From a virus (Duplodnaviria; Heunggongvirae; Uroviricota; Caudoviricetes), in IMG/VR virus record IMGVR_UViG_2695420876_000008: DNA of 21,109 bases; one strand, given 5' to 3'. Position numbers and translations under genes: made by a program. Of the stretch, positions 904 to 19,982 are shown one piece after another. Each line of letters opens with the position of its first letter. Within the stretch, counting starts at the first letter, position 1. A model generated the notes under the pieces. The model was given only the letters and a program-made list of their open reading frames with translations. It searched no databases and had not been told where the DNA came from.

Positions 904-1353
904 CGAATTTCTCCCGTGTACAGGAACAGAGTTAAAAAGCCGGAACCGGAATCAAATTACAGGATGGCCATCTGCCAGTGGCTGGTCGTAAAAAAAAGGC
1001 CACGCCATGCGCAGCCGGAAATAAAGGGATAACGATGATAGTTTGAGAAAAACAGAAACAACACTTTTGTGGCAAAGCATGGTGCCGGGTGCCTCCCGGT
1101 GAATTCAGTATCAGCACCTGAATCCGCGATTATCCCATATACCTGGTTGCTGATCGCCCCTCCGCACAGGGGGATTCACCATGCCAGTTTCTTTTAACAA
1201 ACTCCCCGCAAACCAGACAACAGTCAACCGCCTGAATTGTGAGGTATTTAAAAATTTCAACGGGTAACTGATACCCTGCTAATCGCCTGATGCTTTCTTT
1301 TTCAGCAACGGGAAAGCAACAACCACCACACCCACCAGCCGCCCATTTACCAC

Positions 1354-6053: not shown

Positions 6054-6362
6054 TTAAACCCGAAACAGTGAGGAGCGCGATTGCGATCCAGCCAGGGGAG
6101 GTTCGGCTGTATACCCCTGTAAAGCTCTGCCCTGATTTCTTACAAACAGGCGGAGCCTTGTGTTTGCTTCGTGCCTTGCTCTGTTCTCCTTGCGGAATGA
6201 AACAGGCTCAGCGTCAAAAGTGATTTCGTATACCTCCGCATATTTCAGGGCAACCTTCCGTCTCAGTGACGGAGGCAGCCCCTGTAACTGCTGCTGAATC
6301 CACTCTTCGTCTGCCTGGCAGTACCTAGATGGCATCTCTGTCTGAACGTAATTCTGGGACAT
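6054..6362 (-). CDS. Small regulatory protein in the cII position (possible CII/YdaT-like analogue; function unassigned)
   Basis: 102-aa ORF immediately downstream of the Cro-like gene on the same strand, overlapping it by 38 nt; SD GGAGGTGAA upstream of ATG 6362. Confidence 0.5.
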   Translation of the reverse strand: MSQNYVQTEMPSRYCQADEEWIQQQLQGLPPSLRRKVALKYAEVYEITFDAEPVSFRKENRARHEANTRLRLFVRNQGRALQGYTAEPPLAGSQSRSSLFRV

Positions 6363-6612
6363 ACAAGCCCTTCACCTCCCCCGTGCGCGCTAAGCTTGGA
6401 TGTGGAAAAAGCTCTGGTAGGTCTGGCCGAAATTCATACGCTTGGATCTTTCCGTCGACAGCTGCAACCAATAACGGCACAAATTCTGGTGAAATCTTGT
6501 TCTTGCAGTTCAACCAATCGCAGACTGTTGACTGGGCCTTTCCGCATCGCTTGGCTAAGGCTTGCTGACTTCCAAGAATCTCAATAGCTTTCTCTATGGC
6601 TTTATGTTTCAT
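6325..6612 (-). CDS. Cro-like repressor (YdaS-type HTH)
   Basis: MKHKAIEKAIEILGSQQALAKRCGKAQSTVCDWLN...AYEFRPDL resembles the YdaS/Cro-like HTH pattern as recalled. Start chosen at ATG 6612 with SD AGGAG 8 nt upstream, not the track's 6663. Divergent from the CI-like gene. Confidence 0.75.
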   Translation of the reverse strand: MKHKAIEKAIEILGSQQALAKRCGKAQSTVCDWLNCKNKISPEFVPLLVAAVDGKIQAYEFRPDLPELFPHPSLARTGEVKGLYVPELRSDRDAI

Positions 6613-6634
6613 AATCGCATCTCCTATTGAACGC

Positions 6635-6663
6635 ATAATAACAACAGGAAAAGCGATATTCAA
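6635..6663 (-). promoter_or_regulatory. Candidate pR-like promoter for the Cro-like operon
   Basis: Minus strand: -35 TTGAAT (plus 6658-6663), 17-nt spacer, -10 TATTAT (plus 6635-6640), about 20 nt upstream of the cro SD. Confidence 0.4.
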
Positions 6664-6679
6664 CGTTAAACATAGAATA

Positions 6680-6699
6680 TTTATCGGAAAGCCGATAAA
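6680..6699. promoter_or_regulatory. 20-bp perfect palindromic operator candidate, TTTATCGG-AAAG-CCGATAAA
   Basis: Perfect 8-bp inverted arms with 4-bp spacer between the divergent cro-like and cI-like genes. Confidence 0.55.
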
Positions 6700-6731
6700 C
6701 TAGCCAAGATAGAGAGGGGAGGAAAATCGCA

Positions 6732-7424
6732 ATGACATTTTCAGAACGACTTGATTTAGCTATGCGCAACGCAAAATTTACGCAAGGTAGGCTGGCCAAA
6801 GAAGTGGGTATGGCTCAGTCCAGTGTTAATCAACTACTTAACAAAGCCAACGGTTCCAGAAAAACAGTCGAAATAGCAAAAGTTTTGGGCGTTAACCCGG
6901 AATGGCTCGCATCGGGTGTTGGCCCAATGGAAATCGTGACCTCTGCAGACTCACACCAAATACGTAACATTTCTGAAGATTGGGTTACTGATTCGTATGT
7001 CGTGGATGTTTTAGACATCAGATATAGTTGCGGACCTGGTAGTTATAACTCTGATTTTCCTGATATTGTCAGATCTATAGCGATAGAACCAGGATACGCA
7101 TCAAGAGTTTTTGGCGGCAGACCAGCATCAGCAATCAAAGCAATAAACGCCCACGGCGACAGTATGAAAGGCACAATAGACCCTGAAGACTTGGTATTTG
7201 TAGATGTATCAGTTCGCACATTTAATGGTGATGGTATATACGCCTTTACATACTCTGGAACATCGCACATCAAAAGACTTCAAAAAATCAAAGATACTCT
7301 AACGGTGATATCTGACAACCCAGCTTACAAGGATTGGGCTATCGAACCGGAAGACTTCGAACAACTTCACATTGACGGAAAAGTAATTGTCAGTTGGCCT
7401 ATGACACTACACCGTTTTGCATAA
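6732..7424 (+). CDS. CI-type prophage repressor (N-terminal HTH + C-terminal LexA/S24 autopeptidase domain)
   Basis: HTH segment QGRLAKEVGMAQSSVNQL; S24 catalytic motifs GDSM and HIKRL; SD GGAGG 9 nt upstream. Confidence 0.9.
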   Translation: MTFSERLDLAMRNAKFTQGRLAKEVGMAQSSVNQLLNKANGSRKTVEIAKVLGVNPEWLASGVGPMEIVTSADSHQIRNISEDWVTDSYVVDVLDIRYSCGPGSYNSDFPDIVRSIAIEPGYASRVFGGRPASAIKAINAHGDSMKGTIDPEDLVFVDVSVRTFNGDGIYAFTYSGTSHIKRLQKIKDTLTVISDNPAYKDWAIEPEDFEQLHIDGKVIVSWPMTLHRFA

Positions 7425-12652: not shown

Positions 12653-12862
12653 ATGGGGCTGGATTGCGTGCCTATATCAACCTACTGCCGCGACGCGGGA
12701 GAAACGGTTGATGCCGTTAACAAACGGATACAAAGAGGAATATGGAAAGAAGGGGTTCATGTATTAAAAGTCGACGGAGTTAAAGAACGCTGGGTCGACT
12801 TAATAGAGGTTTCAAAATGGGCAAGAAAGAACAAGGATTATTATCTCTGCCAAGAGGAGTAA
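12653..12862 (+). CDS. Excisionase-like protein (Xis candidate)
   Basis: Small ORF immediately upstream of and overlapping the integrase start (classic xis-int arrangement); SD GAGGTGA upstream. Confidence 0.5.
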   Translation: MGLDCVPISTYCRDAGETVDAVNKRIQRGIWKEGVHVLKVDGVKERWVDLIEVSKWARKNKDYYLCQEE

Positions 12863-13942
12863 CTATTCGTAAGCATAAAACTGCTTCAACACTAGTTATC
12901 ACTTTCACATATAAAGGGGTTCTTTGCAGGGAGCCCCTGTCTCGGCTTGAGGCAAATACACGTGGTATTAAATATGCTGAGCGCCTGCTAGGGGAGATAC
13001 AAAATCAGATCGCCAGCGGAACGTTTGAATATGCGAAATATTTCCCCAGTTCCAAAAAACTGGAGTTATTCGGTGTAGTAAAGAAAACCAAAAATATTAA
13101 GTCCTATCTTGATGAATACCTGAAAATTTGCATGAACCGCAATCTGTCGCCGTCAACCATTGGCGGTTACGAAAAATGTCTATCAGCACTATCAGAACTA
13201 CATAAACTACATGTAACAGAATTGACGCCTGCGGTACTAAAAAATTGGATAGCCAGCCGAAAAACTAAGCTGAAAACAATCAGGAATAACCTGTCATTTC
13301 TGCGCAGCGCCATTGATGAGGCTGTAACTGATGGCCTGTTGACTATTAACCCGGTAACTCTTGTCAGCGCCAGCCGGTATCACGTGGTCGACAGGTGCCA
13401 TATATCAGCACTGCAAGTATCAGGAATGGCAGAATCTGTTCCGCTTCGCCTTCAATACAGGGCTACGCAGCTCTGAGCTATGCGCATTACGTTGGACCGA
13501 TATCGACTTTATAGGTAATACAGCGCACATACAGGCGGCCAGTGTCGTAGGGGTACTTAAAGGCACCAAGACAAAAGCCGGTACCCGTAAGGTGGAGCTG
13601 AACAGTGAGGCGCTGGCGGCCCTGCAGGCGCAGAAGCAATACACCTTTATGAAAAGTGAGTTCATATTCAGCGATCCGAAAACGGGAGATCCCTGGACGA
13701 ACGCCGACGCTATCCGTAAAAAAGCATGGGTGCCGACCCTGAAAAAAGCTGGTGTGCGCTACCGTAACCCGTACCAGACGCGCCACACATTCGCCACCAG
13801 ACACATTAGCCAGGGTGTAAACCTTTTCTGGCTTGCCGGGCAGATGGGGCATAAGGGGCCGGAAATGCTGTTCCGCAATTACGGTAAATACCTGGCTGAA
13901 TACGACGGGAAAACCGCAATGGAATCTGGAATGAAGAAGTGA
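12817..13942 (+). pseudogene. Lambda-family tyrosine integrase, split by a +1 frame break around 13365-13400
   Basis: ORF 12817-13476 has an arm-binding-type N-terminus (LPRGVTIRKHKTASTLVITFTYKGVLCREPL) and core-binding region; ORF 13361-13942 in the +1 frame has the catalytic domain (FAFNTGLRSSELCALRWTDIDF, YQTRHTFATRH, GHKGPEMLFRNYGKYL). Confidence 0.8.
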
Positions 13943-13955
13943 TTTGAAGAAAAAA

Positions 13956-13978
13956 CCCGGCAAATGCCGGGTCTTTTT
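13956..13978. terminator. Bidirectional intrinsic terminator between convergent int and the 255-aa gene
   Basis: A-run, CCCGGCA-aa-TGCCGGG hairpin, then TCTTTTT. Confidence 0.6.
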
Positions 13979-13983
13979 GATGG

Positions 13984-14751
13984 TTATTCTGTCGCGCCAC
14001 CTATCGAAACATAATCATGAAATTGATCGTCAATGAGTCGGTCCTTACAGATAACATGTACAATGTGACGACAACAGTTTTCATCATCATACGCACGACC
14101 CCAGCGAACAATCTCATCTACAGACAGATCATTCGCACTCCATGGCAAAGTACCTGAAACGCCACGCGCACCTGGACCAAGTATGTCCATAAATTTCTTC
14201 GTGCGTGAATTGTAGATCCGTACCTCGGCAATTCGAATGATGCTACTAGCCCAAAGAGCACCACCGGCAATACTTTGAATGTTATCGCAGATGAGAAACT
14301 CATGCTTTCGCGCAAGCATTTTATAGATCTCACGCGCCAAACCTGCTGATTGGAAATCCTGTGCGATAACAGCGCTTTTCACTTGCTTTCCGGTCATCAT
14401 CTGACCGTTCTCTTCGATAAAATTAAAGTCGTTGAACTGTATACGACCTATTCTTATCGTTTTGTTATCGTCTACCATATCAAGACCCAAGAGGGTATTG
14501 ACCAGATCCTGCATTGGAACCTTCGAATCAAGAAGGTCACTGCCATAGTCTAAAAAAAAGTCGTCGGTGGAACATCCCAGTTGATACACATCCAAGTAGT
14601 ACTGAAACTCACCAGAACTGACAATGTACTCATCAGCCCTCAGTAAGCCAGCCTCGGCAGTGAAAAAATAGAATGACTCAATAAGACGTTTTTCGCCAAA
14701 TGGCGTAATGTTCAAGTCCTTGTTATATGAAGGTATTAACGCAGGAGCCAT
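13984..14751 (-). CDS. Hypothetical protein (255 aa), second gene of the int-proximal cargo cassette
   Basis: ORF with ATG 14751, 11 nt after the stop of the upstream 113-aa gene; no family recognised. Confidence 0.6.
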   Translation of the reverse strand: MAPALIPSYNKDLNITPFGEKRLIESFYFFTAEAGLLRADEYIVSSGEFQYYLDVYQLGCSTDDFFLDYGSDLLDSKVPMQDLVNTLLGLDMVDDNKTIRIGRIQFNDFNFIEENGQMMTGKQVKSAVIAQDFQSAGLAREIYKMLARKHEFLICDNIQSIAGGALWASSIIRIAEVRIYNSRTKKFMDILGPGARGVSGTLPWSANDLSVDEIVRWGRAYDDENCCRHIVHVICKDRLIDDQFHDYVSIGGATE

Positions 14752-14762
14752 TCAGCAACCTT

Positions 14763-15104
14763 TTAATGGTAGTTAATTTCCCTGTAGTTCTTCTGCATGT
14801 ATAGAGCAATTGCCGCTTCAATTTTCTTCAGCAGATTACTGCTTACATACTGAGGATACTGATCTGCTGGCTTCACAACATAGCGCAATTTTTCTTTGTT
14901 CATGGCGATCTCAGCGAACGGGATCACGTCACCGTCACGAACCTCATTGTTCAATGTCACAATAAACAGCTGACGTGCCGGGGAGACACGATCACTCAGT
15001 CTTCTCACGAAGAACTCGTTTGCTGTGTTTGAGTCAACAAAAGAACTGACGAGTTGAGTCCGACGCTCAATCGTCTGTATCGATCTTCTCGCTACTGTTC
15101 TCAT
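14763..15104 (-). CDS. Hypothetical protein (113 aa), first gene of the int-proximal cargo cassette
   Basis: ATG 15104 with SD GAGGAG 8 nt upstream; no family recognised. Confidence 0.6.
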   Translation of the reverse strand: MRTVARRSIQTIERRTQLVSSFVDSNTANEFFVRRLSDRVSPARQLFIVTLNNEVRDGDVIPFAEIAMNKEKLRYVVKPADQYPQYVSSNLLKKIEAAIALYMQKNYREINYH

Positions 15105-15120
15105 GCTAGTCTCCTCAACA

Positions 15121-15244
15121 CTTCACTGGCTGTGCAGTGAAGGTACAAAAAGCCACTGATGATAACAGCGTCATCAGTGGCCCTTGATGGTGATAACCGC
15201 AGTTACCTAAATAGTATGATATTACCTTACGGGTAATTCTTCAA
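15121..15244 (-). promoter_or_regulatory. Structured leader of the cargo cassette: candidate promoter, terminator-like hairpin with U-tract, and a second hairpin abutting the SD
   Basis: Minus strand: -35 TTGAAG (plus 15239-15244), 17-nt spacer, -10 TATCAT (plus 15216-15221); 10-bp perfect stem CCACTGATGA/TCATCAGTGG (15153-15180) followed by CTTTTT; second stem CTTCACTG/CAGTGAAG (15121-15142) directly upstream of the SD. Confidence 0.4.
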
Positions 15245-15434
15245 CGATTGCTCTGAATTGAATAGTCTTGAAGTGCTATGAACAGCACAAAACAGCGCTA
15301 ATCACCGCCCCAGTGGCGCCTAAACACTTCAAAATGTTGGACAGAATCAGGACGTTAGAGGTACTACAATATGCACGTAAAATGCACGTGAGGTATTTTA
15401 AATTAGAAAAATCATTAATATTCAATTGGTTAAG

Positions 15435-15474
15435 AATTTTTCGGATACGGGTTCAACTCCCGCCAGCTCCACCA
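15435..15474 (+). other. ssrA (tmRNA) 3'-terminal fragment: T-arm plus acceptor 3' strand plus CCA; att-site duplicate, not an intact gene
   Basis: ...CGGATACGGGTTCAACTCCCGCCAGCTCCACCA matches my recollection of the E. coli tmRNA 3' end; no tmRNA 5' body (GGGGCTGATTCTGG...) is present upstream. Confidence 0.6.
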
Positions 15475-15508
15475 CTTTTTAGTTGTTTGAAGTTCAATGA
15501 AGTCTACT

Positions 15509-15542
15509 AAGCCCACACAGCACAAGCTCTGCGGGCTTTTTT
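15509..15542 (+). terminator. Candidate intrinsic terminator downstream of the ssrA fragment
   Basis: AAGCCC...GGGCTT imperfect long hairpin followed by T6. Confidence 0.4.
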
Positions 15543-15639
15543 ACGTCTATTGTCGTCCAGTGAGAATTGCTGAGAACTACGAGTTATGGCACCCTGAATG
15601 GGACCCACTAAGAAGGGTCCAAAAACCGAGGGTCCCAAA

Positions 15640-16869
15640 ATGGCAAAAATCGCTAAGAAGCTCACTGACACTGAAATCAAAAGCACCAAGCCAGCCGATA
15701 AAGAAATCAACTTGTTTGACGGTGATGGTCTGATTCTACGAATCGCTCCTTTGGCGAAAGGAGGCAAGAAAAATTGGTATTTCAGGTATGCAGTACCAGT
15801 GAGCAAGAAAAGAACCAAAATGAGCCTTGGGACATATCCTCACCTTACCCTTGCAAGAGCCAGAGCCTTACGTGATGAATATCTCTCCTTTCTGGCAAAT
15901 GGTGTTGATCCCCAAATCCATAACAACGATAAGGCGAAGGCATTAAAGAGTGCTACTGAGCACACTCTCCAAGCCGTAGCGCGGAAATGGTTAGATGAGA
16001 AGGTAAAGACATCAGGTATCTCACAAGACCATGCAGCAGACATCTGGCGCAGCTTAGAGAGAAATGTCTTTCCCGGTCTGGGTAATGTCCCTATCAATGA
16101 GATCCGACCTAAGCTCTTAAAACAACACCTTGATCCTATTGAGCAACGAGGCGTATTGGAAACTCTACGCCGTATCATTTCACGTCTGAATGAAATCTTC
16201 CGGTGGGCAGCTACTGAAGAACTTATTGAGTTCAACCCGGCTGACAACCTTGGTCAAAGATTCAGTAAACCAAAAAAGCAAAATATGCCTGCCCTTCCCC
16301 CAAGCGAATTGCCAAGGTTTATGGAATCTTTGACGAATGCGTCAATCCGGTTGGAAACACGTATGCTAATTGAATGGCAATTGTTGACATGGGTTCGTCC
16401 GGGTGAAGCCGTTCGCGCAAGGTGGTCTGATATTGATACAACCAACAGCATTTGGAACATTCCTGCTGATTTCATGAAAATGAAAAAGCTTCACAAAGTT
16501 CCTTTGAGTAAAGAAGCTTTGCGCATCCTTGAATTAATGAAATCAATAAGTGGGCATAGAGAATGGGTTTTCCCCAGCATAAAAGCGCCTCTTAATCATA
16601 TGCATGAACAAACAGCCAACGCAGCTATCATCCGAATGGGGTTCGGAGGCGAGCTTGTAGCTCACGGTATGCGTTCTATTGCACGAACAGCGGCAGAGGA
16701 GTCTGGTAAATTCAGAGCTGAAGTTCTTGAGGCAGCGCTTGCCCACTCGAAAAAAGATGAAATTATCGCAGCATACAATCGTGCAGAATATCTGATAGAG
16801 CGACAGAGTTTGATGCAATGGTGGAGTGATTACGTTCAAGCTCAAAGATCAAATGCTCTGGTAGCCTAA
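15640..16869 (+). CDS. P4-family tyrosine integrase (IntA/CP4-57-like, tRNA/tmRNA-site class)
   Basis: MAKIAKKLTDTEIKSTKPADKEINLFDGDGLILRIAP... N-terminal arm-type domain and C-terminal catalytic domain (HGMRSIARTAA, ...AYNRAEYL); lies directly downstream of the ssrA 3' fragment; start at ATG 15640 with SD GAGGG, not the track's 15598. Confidence 0.85.
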   Translation: MAKIAKKLTDTEIKSTKPADKEINLFDGDGLILRIAPLAKGGKKNWYFRYAVPVSKKRTKMSLGTYPHLTLARARALRDEYLSFLANGVDPQIHNNDKAKALKSATEHTLQAVARKWLDEKVKTSGISQDHAADIWRSLERNVFPGLGNVPINEIRPKLLKQHLDPIEQRGVLETLRRIISRLNEIFRWAATEELIEFNPADNLGQRFSKPKKQNMPALPPSELPRFMESLTNASIRLETRMLIEWQLLTWVRPGEAVRARWSDIDTTNSIWNIPADFMKMKKLHKVPLSKEALRILELMKSISGHREWVFPSIKAPLNHMHEQTANAAIIRMGFGGELVAHGMRSIARTAAEESGKFRAEVLEAALAHSKKDEIIAAYNRAEYLIERQSLMQWWSDYVQAQRSNALVA

Positions 16870-17395: not shown

Positions 17396-19144
17396 TTATG
17401 GTAGCATCATTGATACATAATCCACACCAATCCTTGAGCTATACTGAGACGCTATAGCCTGATATCTTTCTGCATAACCAGTTCTCAGTTGAGATTTAAG
17501 TTTGAGTCGGACAGGAACATTTTGCACGTTGCCATCCATATTACTTAAAAACACGGCAGAAATAATATTTTTTTCTTCGCCATCAACTGTTGTTCCATGA
17601 TTCAACACCACCATATAATCAACAACAGGAAGCGTTTTATCCCCTTCGAAAATAGAGAGATATTTTCTTTGATTTTTATGCATTACATATATATATTTCG
17701 AATGTTCAGCAAATGGCAATGCTTTACTCTGACTGGCGTTAAAAAGCTCCAGAACTTTAATGAGCCTGTGCGGACTTAATCTTACATGGTGAGGGTCGTT
17801 ACCCTGAGTAGGAACCAAATCACATGCCGCAGATACACATAAATACCATTTGTTCGACTCTGTATCAAAGAAAATAGTGCCAGTAGAAATATGACCATCT
17901 TCAAAATTCTTTGAAGACAAATTCATATTTAAAGCATGATACATTTCGTGATAAGTATCATTATTTGATGGCAGATCCATTTTTGAAGAGCAATATTGGA
18001 GCAATGCAGCAACTCCGCTGTTAGCGTATTCATTTGAATAGCTATCAAAAACACTTTTGATAAATTCATCCAGCGTATTATTATTTTTAAGTCTTTGATA
18101 AAGCTCTTCTGATAAATTACCAAATACAAAGTCAATATTTCTACATCTAATATCAGGCGAGTCTGATTTTAATATCTCATTTAACCACGCAGCTTGACCG
18201 TAATGATCGTTAGCCAAATGATTTACAAAAGATAAAGCCTCAGCTTCGATTGCATTCTGAATTTCAGATTTTATTAACTGATAATAAGATGGTTTCCATT
18301 CAATGAGAGAATCATTGAGAGTTTGCCAAATCCTATCTCCATCGTTTTCATGATCATCTTGAACCTTATGAAATAGGGAGACAAAGATATTACCACATTG
18401 AATCCATTTTACTCCGCTTTCATCACCCCGAATGACATTGCCAGATGTGTTGCTAGAAATAATTGCATTTCTAGACACAGCATATTCTGCAATCATTTTT
18501 GCAATGAAGTTTTTATCCTTTTGTTCCTCCAACACAGCATCATCATGTATTAATCTTTTAATTCTTCTACAAGGCTTACTGTCTTTAATATAGGCTATTG
18601 TTTCATCTCTTGTGAGAGCTTTATTACCATTATCATTTAAGTTCGGTAATACAACGTCTTCCCAATAACTTTGGACATCTTCATTATCGTAGTCAATGAT
18701 CAAGCTGTTGATATCCAGAGCACCTTTGAGAGTCGATGATATCTGCATCCAAACCGTTTCTAAATTCTCTCTAGTATATATTACAATCATATTTAAATGA
18801 TCGGAGTCTTTCAAATCTTGTAATAGTTTAAGTGTTTTATCAGGTGCATTATTATCAAGATGATAATCTACAATAATAAGATCTGATTTTCTAATCCGAT
18901 CCACATCGAAATTAACAGAACCATTGTCAACATCACAAATCATATTTTTAGATTGAAAAAAGCTCTCAAGAGTAGCGGCTCGTTTAGATGAGTCAATTTT
19001 GTTGTAGTCTAAATCAACTTCGTTATTCAACGCCCTGATTGATTCAGAATACGTCAGAAAATCGTCATCAATCATGACAACGGAACGAATTGCATTTTCG
19101 CAGAAAGTTTTCTGGACAAGAGAATTATAATTTGCCACTGTCAT
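17396..19144 (-). CDS. Receiver (REC-like) domain protein fused to a ~430-aa C-terminal domain of unknown function; no DNA-binding output domain recognised
   Basis: N-terminal REC-like motifs VVMIDDD, DLIIVDYHL, MIVIYT; large uncharacterised C-terminal region. Start at ATG 19144 preferred (SD GGAG upstream; one nt after the kinase stop) over the track's 19162. Confidence 0.7.
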   Translation of the reverse strand: MTVANYNSLVQKTFCENAIRSVVMIDDDFLTYSESIRALNNEVDLDYNKIDSSKRAATLESFFQSKNMICDVDNGSVNFDVDRIRKSDLIIVDYHLDNNAPDKTLKLLQDLKDSDHLNMIVIYTRENLETVWMQISSTLKGALDINSLIIDYDNEDVQSYWEDVVLPNLNDNGNKALTRDETIAYIKDSKPCRRIKRLIHDDAVLEEQKDKNFIAKMIAEYAVSRNAIISSNTSGNVIRGDESGVKWIQCGNIFVSLFHKVQDDHENDGDRIWQTLNDSLIEWKPSYYQLIKSEIQNAIEAEALSFVNHLANDHYGQAAWLNEILKSDSPDIRCRNIDFVFGNLSEELYQRLKNNNTLDEFIKSVFDSYSNEYANSGVAALLQYCSSKMDLPSNNDTYHEMYHALNMNLSSKNFEDGHISTGTIFFDTESNKWYLCVSAACDLVPTQGNDPHHVRLSPHRLIKVLELFNASQSKALPFAEHSKYIYVMHKNQRKYLSIFEGDKTLPVVDYMVVLNHGTTVDGEEKNIISAVFLSNMDGNVQNVPVRLKLKSQLRTGYAERYQAIASQYSSRIGVDYVSMMLP

Positions 19145-19145
19145 A

Positions 19146-19982
19146 TTAGAACTCCACTCCATTGAACTGGATCACAAAATTAGCGCCATCTTTTATTAAA
19201 TAGTTATCGCCTTCATCAGGTTCTGAATACCATATTTTATGATGTGCAACAGCAAGGTTTTCTCGACATAGATACAGACCTACCCCATGTCCATTTGCTC
19301 TTTTGCTATAAAATAGTTCAAATAGTCGCGGGATATCATCGGTATCAATTGCCGGACCAGAATTTGCTATGATAACCAAAGAATTCACAAAACCAATCTT
19401 TATGAGCCTATTATTTGACAGACTGACCCAATACATTGCATTGTTGATAATATTAGTAAAAACAGGATAGATCCTTGATGGTATATCTGTTATTGCGATT
19501 TGCTTAAACTCTTCACTAAATTCAATAGTTATTCGTTGCCGTTCGAAACGCTCCCCAAAGAACTTCAGGACATAATCCATGATATTTTTTCCAGTTATTC
19601 TCTGCCTGGATTGATAACCTGATATTTTCAAAGGTGATAAGAAACGTATTTGTTGAGTAAGCGATCTGTGAGCATTTAACGCCAATGAAAAACCAGGGTG
19701 TTCTTTTACAGAAGTAGGAAGAGAGTTTAGTCCTCTGGTTACCATAGAATCCATTTCTTCAAGTTCATGAGATATTATCTCAACACTAATACCTAACTGT
19801 GCAAGCGCGTTTAAACTTTTAGCTTTTTCTTCAAAATATGAGCGTTCTTCTTCAGATAATGAGAATGCTGAATCTAAGTTTATACCTTCAAATAATCTAT
19901 CGAGACCTTTTATTATTGATTGATATTTGAAAGTTAGGGTATCAACTGACTCAACATATAAACTATCGAGCAAATTAAACAC
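19146..19982 (-). CDS. Histidine kinase core (DHp H-box + HATPase_c), cytoplasmic; start uncertain
   Basis: H-box ISHELEEMDS; N-box YPVFTNIINNAMYW; G1-like IANSGPAIDTDD; G2 GHGVGLYL. No ATG near the 5' end (track start is GTG); the frame stays open upstream to 20111. Confidence 0.7.
   Translation of the reverse strand: MFNLLDSLYVESVDTLTFKYQSIIKGLDRLFEGINLDSAFSLSEEERSYFEEKAKSLNALAQLGISVEIISHELEEMDSMVTRGLNSLPTSVKEHPGFSLALNAHRSLTQQIRFLSPLKISGYQSRQRITGKNIMDYVLKFFGERFERQRITIEFSEEFKQIAITDIPSRIYPVFTNIINNAMYWVSLSNNRLIKIGFVNSLVIIANSGPAIDTDDIPRLFELFYSKRANGHGVGLYLCRENLAVAHHKIWYSEPDEGDNYLIKDGANFVIQFNGVEF

Follow-up and report, generated by a model that had tools for sequence, protein, structure and literature searches.

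Phage morons are autonomous units of promoter, gene and terminator, examples being bor and lom of lambda and those of HK97. In lambdoid phages, the PR'-tR' unit gives rise to a short transcript, represented by 6S RNA in lambda and by StxS in Stx phages (PMC7547250). Type III toxin-antitoxin loci (toxIN, cptIN, tenpIN) consist of a promoter, a short non-coding RNA, a palindromic terminator and a protein gene; they are phage- or plasmid-borne, and the terminator sets the ratio of RNA to protein (PMC3401426). A tandem nucleotide repeat array is a defining criterion of a type III locus (PMC3401426).

The locus described here was found in a stretch of 21,109 nucleotides, referred to below as the window. 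As in PR'-tR', a prophage promoter lies closely before an intrinsic terminator, ahead of cargo or late genes. As in type III loci, a promoter and then a terminator stand directly before a protein gene in a cassette.

The window was part of an E. coli chromosome, matching O103:H2 strain PV16-126 with 99.9% identity from 13900 to 15600, and contained a lambdoid prophage at ssrA, related to the PhiR12 phages. The cassette occupied the minus strand in the interval between int and attR. Besides int (an integrase gene at about 12817-13942 on the plus strand), the prophage carried genes for primase and helicase, a repressor resembling cI (6732-7424) and, on the strand of the cassette, the gene of the antiterminator Q (PF06530; 1763-2164, minus strand). 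Directly downstream of the Q gene, Rfam family STnc100 was matched with 108 bits at 1041-1213 (minus strand). STnc100 sits where the lambdoid PR'-tR' short transcript arises, and is therefore probably that RNA here; with the Q gene and STnc100 (1041-2164), the window itself holds a canonical PR'-tR' copy. The prophage integrase was split over two frames in the window (12764-13942, plus strand; ORFs 12817-13476 and 13361-13942), reflecting either a pseudogene or a sequencing error, and RefSeq gives a single 392-aa integrase CDS in the O103:H2 genome. The cassette and its surroundings comprised the following features:

13951-13980, no strand assigned: bidirectional terminator-like hairpin A6-CCCGGCAaatGCCGGG-TCT5, with arms CCCGGCA and GCCGGG around aat (sequence reading)
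13984-14751, minus strand: gene 2, 255 aa, phrog_3307, GNAT-like predicted fold
14763-15104, minus strand: gene 1, 113 aa, phrog_2594, partial GNAT-like predicted fold
15440-15474, plus strand: ssrA 3' fragment (attR core), right boundary of the prophage (sequence; weak tmRNA match at 15383-15474)

The hairpin at 13951-13980 closed the cassette on one side and int, which converges on it, on the other. Matches to other lysogens ended at 15474, and no complete tmRNA gene was present in the window. After attR, a second and complete tyrosine integrase with an Arm-binding domain was encoded at 15598-16869 (plus strand); an ssrA 3' fragment followed by a second integrase points to two islands in tandem at ssrA. 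The island by the second integrase encoded, in a two-gene module (17396-19162 and 19146-19982, both minus strand), a response-receiver domain protein (PF19192); in the O103:H2 genome the PF19192 protein gene adjoins a gene annotated 'ATP-binding protein'. A weak partial IsrM-like match to Rfam was seen at 15465-15542.

The gene pair was adjacent in 53/53 related loci. Homologues formed ~35 sequence clusters for the 113-aa protein and ~31 for the 255-aa protein, all from Enterobacterales or metagenomes. In PHROGs, phrog_2594 and phrog_3307 are both annotated only 'unknown function', and searches of Pfam, PADLOC and NCBIfam gave no hit for either protein; in particular, neither showed a Pfam GNAT or DUF1778 hit. 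Matches to GNAT toxins (TacAT, AtaRT) were no better than to many other GNATs. The description of the pair as potentially toxic in an earlier, sequence-only reading of this DNA was an assumption, as the proteins offer only GNAT-like predicted folds and no Pfam or PADLOC hit. The 113-aa protein had an arginine-rich N-terminus that was nearly invariant among homologues. Most homologues of the gene 2 product carried an R-G-A-G-L-A stretch, which reads Q-S-A-G-L-A in the window protein.

In five PhiR12 phage records (hits H70-H74), the homologue of the 255-aa gene matched in two pieces and was annotated as two short ORFs, so the gene seems disrupted in these records; in PhiR12_5 (PV340554, locus L002) the split homologue lay at 6085-6851. 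Nothing relevant was found in the literature on PhiR12 phages. Three phages of ~100-110 kb (Salmonella phage SSU5, Klebsiella phage vB_KpnS_p4727 and Escherichia phage PhiR41_1) encoded proteins distantly homologous to that of 255 aa, with 29-33% identity. The SSU5 pair (SSU5_031/032; L061, 2094-3250) followed lysis genes, adjoined a ParA-like partition gene and had a leader without a terminator.

Upstream of gene 1, the elements on the minus strand were, in order, a promoter, hairpin P1, a 10-nt linker, hairpin T, hairpin P3, the Shine-Dalgarno (SD) sequence GAGGAG and the ATG at 15104:

15239-15244, minus strand: -35 hexamer TTGAAG of the putative cassette promoter (sequence and promoter scan)
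15221-15237, no strand assigned: spacer palindrome ATTACC-N5-GGTAAT of the promoter, which extends into the -10 (exact match once in the window)
15216-15221, minus strand: -10 hexamer TATCAT (promoter scan)
15192-15207, minus strand: P1, 5'-terminal hairpin GGUAAC-ugcg-GUUAUC, 6 bp with one G-U (folding)
15147-15181, minus strand: T, intrinsic-terminator-like hairpin and U5 (scans, folding, inverted-repeat search)
15121-15142, minus strand: P3, 8-bp hairpin CUUCACUG-cacagc-CAGUGAAG, 4 nt 5' of the SD (folding and repeat search)
15102-15116, minus strand: SD GAGGAG (15116-15111) and ATG of gene 1 (15104-15102) (sequence)

The start codon of gene 1 was common to all homologues. A promoter scan of 14500-16000 returned a single sigma70-like site, TTGAAG-17-TATCAT on the minus strand at 15244-15216, the very promoter proposed earlier. 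The scan alone was not significant (1 site vs 2.2 expected in shuffles). Nearly all related leaders had a TTGNNN hexamer at the corresponding position, and most had TTGNNN, a spacer of 16-18 nt and TAnnnT, ending 105-116 nt 5' of the ATG; the position of the promoter was thus kept. Transcription would be expected to fire from this site and to start at ~15209. Between T and the SD, neither the promoter scan nor sequence reading gave a promoter-like match. The possibility that T is only an upstream insulator, with the promoter lying between T and the SD, was rejected because no credible -10 is found there.

The promoter spacer was palindromic in most clades, with clade-specific sequences (e.g., TATAGCT-TG-AGCTATA or GTATTACC-N4-GGTAATAC). 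Some clades had a second copy of the palindrome directly after the -10. Spacers that differ between clades yet stay palindromic resemble a co-evolving operator for a putative regulator. In L031, L048 and L050, a second copy of the spacer half-sites (ATTACCA-N3-TGGTAAT) occupied the place of P1 in other clades. Together with the palindromic spacers, this replacement of P1 indicates that the spacer palindrome, and possibly P1, may be protein-binding sites; the spacer palindrome is a probable operator.

The T stem was made of 11 perfect pairs, GCCACTGATGA (15181-15171) with TCATCAGTGGC (15162-15152) around an 8-nt loop (cgctgtta), and had a predicted energy of -17.8 kcal/mol. It lay directly 5' of TTTTT (15151-15147) followed by G, so that the transcript reads UUUUUGU; no T-run followed the stem on the complementary strand. 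The stem began 34 nt past the -10 and ~28 nt past the likely start. In sequence, T has what marks an intrinsic terminator, a stable G+C-containing stem-loop with a U-rich tract 3' of the stem, and both termination at T and its efficiency are predictions. The sequence-only reading had described this perfect stem and its U-tract correctly, apart from giving the stem 10 bp in place of 11. The 8-bp stem that it had placed at the SD was likewise present, with arms CTTCACTG (15142-15135) and CAGTGAAG (15128-15121) forming 8 perfect pairs around cacagc. This stem, P3, does not reach the SD: 4 nt separate the two, and the SD is left unpaired. Both perfect inverted repeats (T and P3) were recovered by a repeat finder. 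P1 (GGTAAC-tgcg-GTTATC in DNA letters, 15207-15192) and the spacer palindrome ATTACC-N5-GGTAAT had been missed. The pattern GATAAC-N4-GTTATC occurred once in the window vs 0 expected. In A7, P1 was retained with 2 double-changed pairs and G-U variants. Pairing alone would not require the degree of sequence conservation seen in P1; P1 is therefore probably recognised by some factor, and it could be a DNA operator.

On folding of the leader, a check suggested with the earlier claims, the 118-nt RNA formed P1, T and P3 at -40 kcal/mol, compared with -29.2 +/- 3.6 kcal/mol for dinucleotide shuffles (z = -3.0; 0/200 shuffles as stable). One 13-nt imperfect direct repeat, 31 nt apart, was present in the region. 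A 16-nt inverted repeat with 81% complementarity paired 15189-15204 (P1 region) with 15291-15306 (5' of the cassette promoter). It would be relevant only to transcripts reading in from upstream, and by eye its upstream arm was not conserved in Atlantibacter (alignment A2).

From the 53 related loci, 36 distinct upstream sequences were obtained, and 33 were long enough for analysis. A hairpin followed by U4-U8 and ending 43-53 nt 5' of the ATG was present in 27 of the 33. The stems differed in sequence between leaders and had little in common beyond a basal CCAC/GUGG (examples are GCCACUGAUGA, GCCACUGGAG, CCACCUU...AGGUGG and GGUCG...CGGCC). The Buttiauxella clade and L027 had a hairpin at the same place with a degenerate U-tract, and no such terminator was found in L053, L055 or the distant SSU5 pair (34% identity). 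The absence or degeneration of T in the Buttiauxella clade, L027 and the SSU5 pair means that T is dispensable for the genes. In the clade of L026, L031, L048 and L050, a different palindrome stood in place of P1. The linker between P1 and T was not conserved between clades and differed completely.

A covariance model of P1 and T was built from the window, Leclercia and L007 clades. It recovered the Yersinia/Serratia-type leaders at E <= 1e-3 and gave no other match in ~300 kb of flanking phage DNA. In the model-fitted alignment of 19 leaders, which were mostly close relatives, 98.2% of cells were paired vs 14-62% with partner columns slid, and double changes were seen in 6 pairs. The covariation score of these 19 leaders was 0.308, compared with 0.208 +/- 0.014 in shuffles, none of which reached 0.308 (0/500). 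For 8 leaders of the window clade, RNAalifold returned P1, P3 and T, the last lengthened by A/G-U pairs that involve the U-tract. One-sided changes within this clade were all G-U wobbles, a pattern that only a helix in RNA of the coding strand would allow. The view of T as a sense-strand RNA hairpin with a U-tract between promoter and gene 1 is thus borne out by its presence in most leaders, the covariation and the wobbles. Conservation in related loci indicates that the putative promoter and terminator are more than chance. Support for P3 as more than chance is weaker than for these two: within the window clade, P3 belonged to the consensus and showed a compensatory change of one pair, from UA to CG. 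Across clades, the region from T to the ATG was no more stable than shuffles (mean z -0.33), and P3 was rejected as a general structured element on this result. The SD was sequestered by the fold in some clades and free in others.

The leader was tied exclusively to the cassette. DNA from 15100 to ~15310 was found only with the cassette genes, in E. coli genomes and phage records alike, and the sequence from ~15310 on occurred also in other elements that integrate at ssrA. The leader is thus a part of the cassette and not of the att region. Reuse of the leader with other cargo was rejected, since a pattern scan of viral contigs returned the same cassette only, plus 2 chance hits. In Serratia odorifera (L058) the cassette, with its full leader, followed a Q-type antiterminator and preceded the lysis genes; it also lay, again with its full leader, inside a myovirus tail/baseplate cluster in Pantoea ananatis, and between siphovirus tail genes in Yersinia enterocolitica. 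In the Serratia, Pantoea and Yersinia loci it was co-oriented with the surrounding late genes. In all four phage contexts, which are unrelated, T followed the cassette promoter and preceded gene 1; the idea that T terminates a phage gene lying upstream was rejected on account of this constant position.

Given the conserved promoter, the hairpin with its U-tract and the covariation, a terminated transcript of ~60 nt and attenuated read-through are natural predictions. On this comparative sequence evidence, the explanation that we favour has a somewhat better than even chance of being right: the leader would be part of a portable two-gene phage cargo cassette, with T acting as a constitutive, leaky attenuator that yields a ~60-nt RNA and low read-through. 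Most transcripts from ~15209 would end at ~15147 as the ~60-nt RNA, and a minority would read through, so that the lysogen would make the two GNAT-like proteins at a low level. T would likewise stop transcription entering from neighbouring phage operons. During lytic growth, T could be passed by a terminator-resistant polymerase, for example one modified by the Q protein of the resident phage and arriving from the co-oriented late operon across attP. Since the cassette and Q are on the same strand, gene order would place the cassette downstream of the late operon across attP after circularisation; read-through by a Q-modified polymerase is a proposal. The cassette leader as a promoter-proximal terminator or attenuator in a phage accessory cassette, real, conserved and absent from Rfam, is a well-supported annotation.

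The strongest competing explanation is that the ~60-nt RNA, made of P1, linker and T, is itself the functional product, either as a trans-acting or Hfq-bound sRNA like StxS or as an antitoxin-like partner of the GNAT-like proteins, with the terminator setting the ratio of RNA to protein as in type III toxin-antitoxin loci. It seems wasteful for a promoter to fire mostly into a terminator, a hint that the short RNA may have a use of its own, and the promoter is conserved though most transcripts should stop at T. The order of promoter, short structured RNA, terminator and protein genes matches the type III layout (PMC3401426) and the StxS case of PR'-tR' (PMC7547250). The RNA would also have the shape typical of an sRNA (5' hairpin, single-stranded linker, terminator with U-tail), and the sequence conservation of P1 beyond its structure fits such a role. 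However, the single-stranded linker is not conserved between clades, leaving no common seed, and a seed for trans targets was rejected after complements of the linker proved about as frequent elsewhere in the window as expected by chance. The L026/L031/L048/L050 clade has swapped P1 for a different palindrome, some clades have no U-tract, and no Rfam family matched. Tandem repeats are lacking in the leader (TRF, 15050-15450, score 30: no tandem array), and the predicted folds of the proteins resemble GNAT, not the endoribonucleases of the ToxN type. On balance this explanation is unlikely. Its more specific form, in which the RNA is a dedicated partner of the GNAT-like pair, a type III-like antitoxin or regulator without repeats whose excess is set by the terminator, is very unlikely; if true, it would mean a new class of protein-RNA module in temperate phages of Enterobacterales.

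It is also possible, though quite doubtful, that T is a regulated attenuator, switched off by a signal, a protein (of cassette, phage or host) or an alternative fold. A 1:2 / 2:3 / 3:4 topology is possible in several clades through pairing of the loop and 3' arm of P1 with the loop and upper 5' arm of T, and in some clades folds of the nascent transcript contained an alternative helix of 10-12 bp. When duplex energies were compared with dinucleotide shuffles, upstream pairing with the T 5' arm exceeded shuffles in L003, L029, L032 and L033 (z -1.9 to -3.65), so that a switch may exist in some clades. Against this, the window pairing was at chance (z 0.07), as in 14 other leaders, and the register of the alternative helix varies between clades. 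A conserved antiterminator, whether the by-eye pairing of CAUCA with UGAUG or that of the P1 3' arm with the T 5' arm, gained no support, being at chance in the window and in most clades. A recognition event at the leader could be imagined from the resemblance of P1 (GATAAC-N4-GTTATC) to a recognition site and from the arginine-rich N-terminus of the 113-aa protein, yet this N-terminus is nearly invariant and the type of P1 varies between clades. A 19-codon ORF opens at an AUG in the T 5' arm and ends in the SD. In L034 a UAA falls three codons past this AUG, hence no ORF is present, and elsewhere other frames or a fusion with the main ORF are found; leader-peptide attenuation was rejected because the ORF is not conserved, and no other leader peptide is conserved. 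Rfam searches of the whole window with gathering thresholds, and of 14900-15600 with E <= 10, placed no family in the leader (15105-15244), and no riboswitch matched. The conditional read-through proposed in the sequence-only reading is therefore not supported, given the chance-level antiterminator pairing, the unconserved ORF and the lack of an Rfam match.

That the inverted repeats act mainly on DNA as protein-binding operators, with the apparent terminator incidental, is highly improbable: clade-specific palindromes in the promoter spacer, the second half-site copy of L031/L048/L050 where P1 lies elsewhere and the sequence conservation of P1 fit such a role, but the U-tract of T is always on the sense strand only, T stem sequences vary freely between clades, and the one-sided changes, G-U wobbles in RNA, give A-C mismatches on the other strand and asymmetric half-sites on DNA. 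A role as operator may apply to P1 and the spacer palindrome, not to T.

Under the leaky-attenuator explanation, the locus can be set against the described systems. As with PR'-tR', a short RNA is predicted in the lysogen, and a terminator-resistant polymerase would read through. Unlike PR'-tR', the leader RNA is ~60 nt and not 194-258 nt, and the leader accompanies the cassette rather than a Q gene, being found behind Q only in Serratia locus L058. No similarity of the leader to the resident PR' region was seen, and no Q-binding or pause element was recognised in it. The cassette leader was therefore rejected as a PR'-tR' unit, being neither tied to a Q gene nor similar to the resident PR'. 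A type III locus was also rejected, as two defining features (tandem array, ToxN-type toxin) are lacking; in addition, two protein genes follow the terminator where type III loci have one, and the predicted folds are GNAT-like, unlike the endoribonucleases of the ToxN/CptN/TenpN type. Type II modules of GNAT and ribbon-helix-helix proteins (TacAT, AtaRT) differ in that the upstream protein here is predicted to be GNAT-like alpha/beta, not ribbon-helix-helix. With classical attenuators (trp/his, riboswitches, BglG/RAT) the locus shares an intrinsic terminator in the 5' leader and possibly a competing upstream hairpin; it differs from them in having no conserved leader peptide, consistent antiterminator or known aptamer.

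These comparisons bring no change to current concepts and leave a testable annotation. The leaky-attenuator explanation predicts, in some pathogenic E. coli (O103:H2, EPEC E110019) and in other Enterobacterales, an abundant ~60-nt prophage RNA which, by analogy with StxS, might have gained a function of its own. The phrog_2594 and phrog_3307 pair become candidates for a dose-sensitive or toxic activity. If T terminates, the genes would be expressed very weakly in the lysogen and shielded from neighbouring phage operons at whatever site the unit enters. The cassette behaves like a moron: it has its own sigma70 promoter and a 3' terminator, and lies in different places in different temperate phage genomes. 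Unlike morons, it has an extra conserved terminator between its own promoter and its genes, and, if T terminates, it would be a clear example of a moron with an internal brake besides its own promoter.
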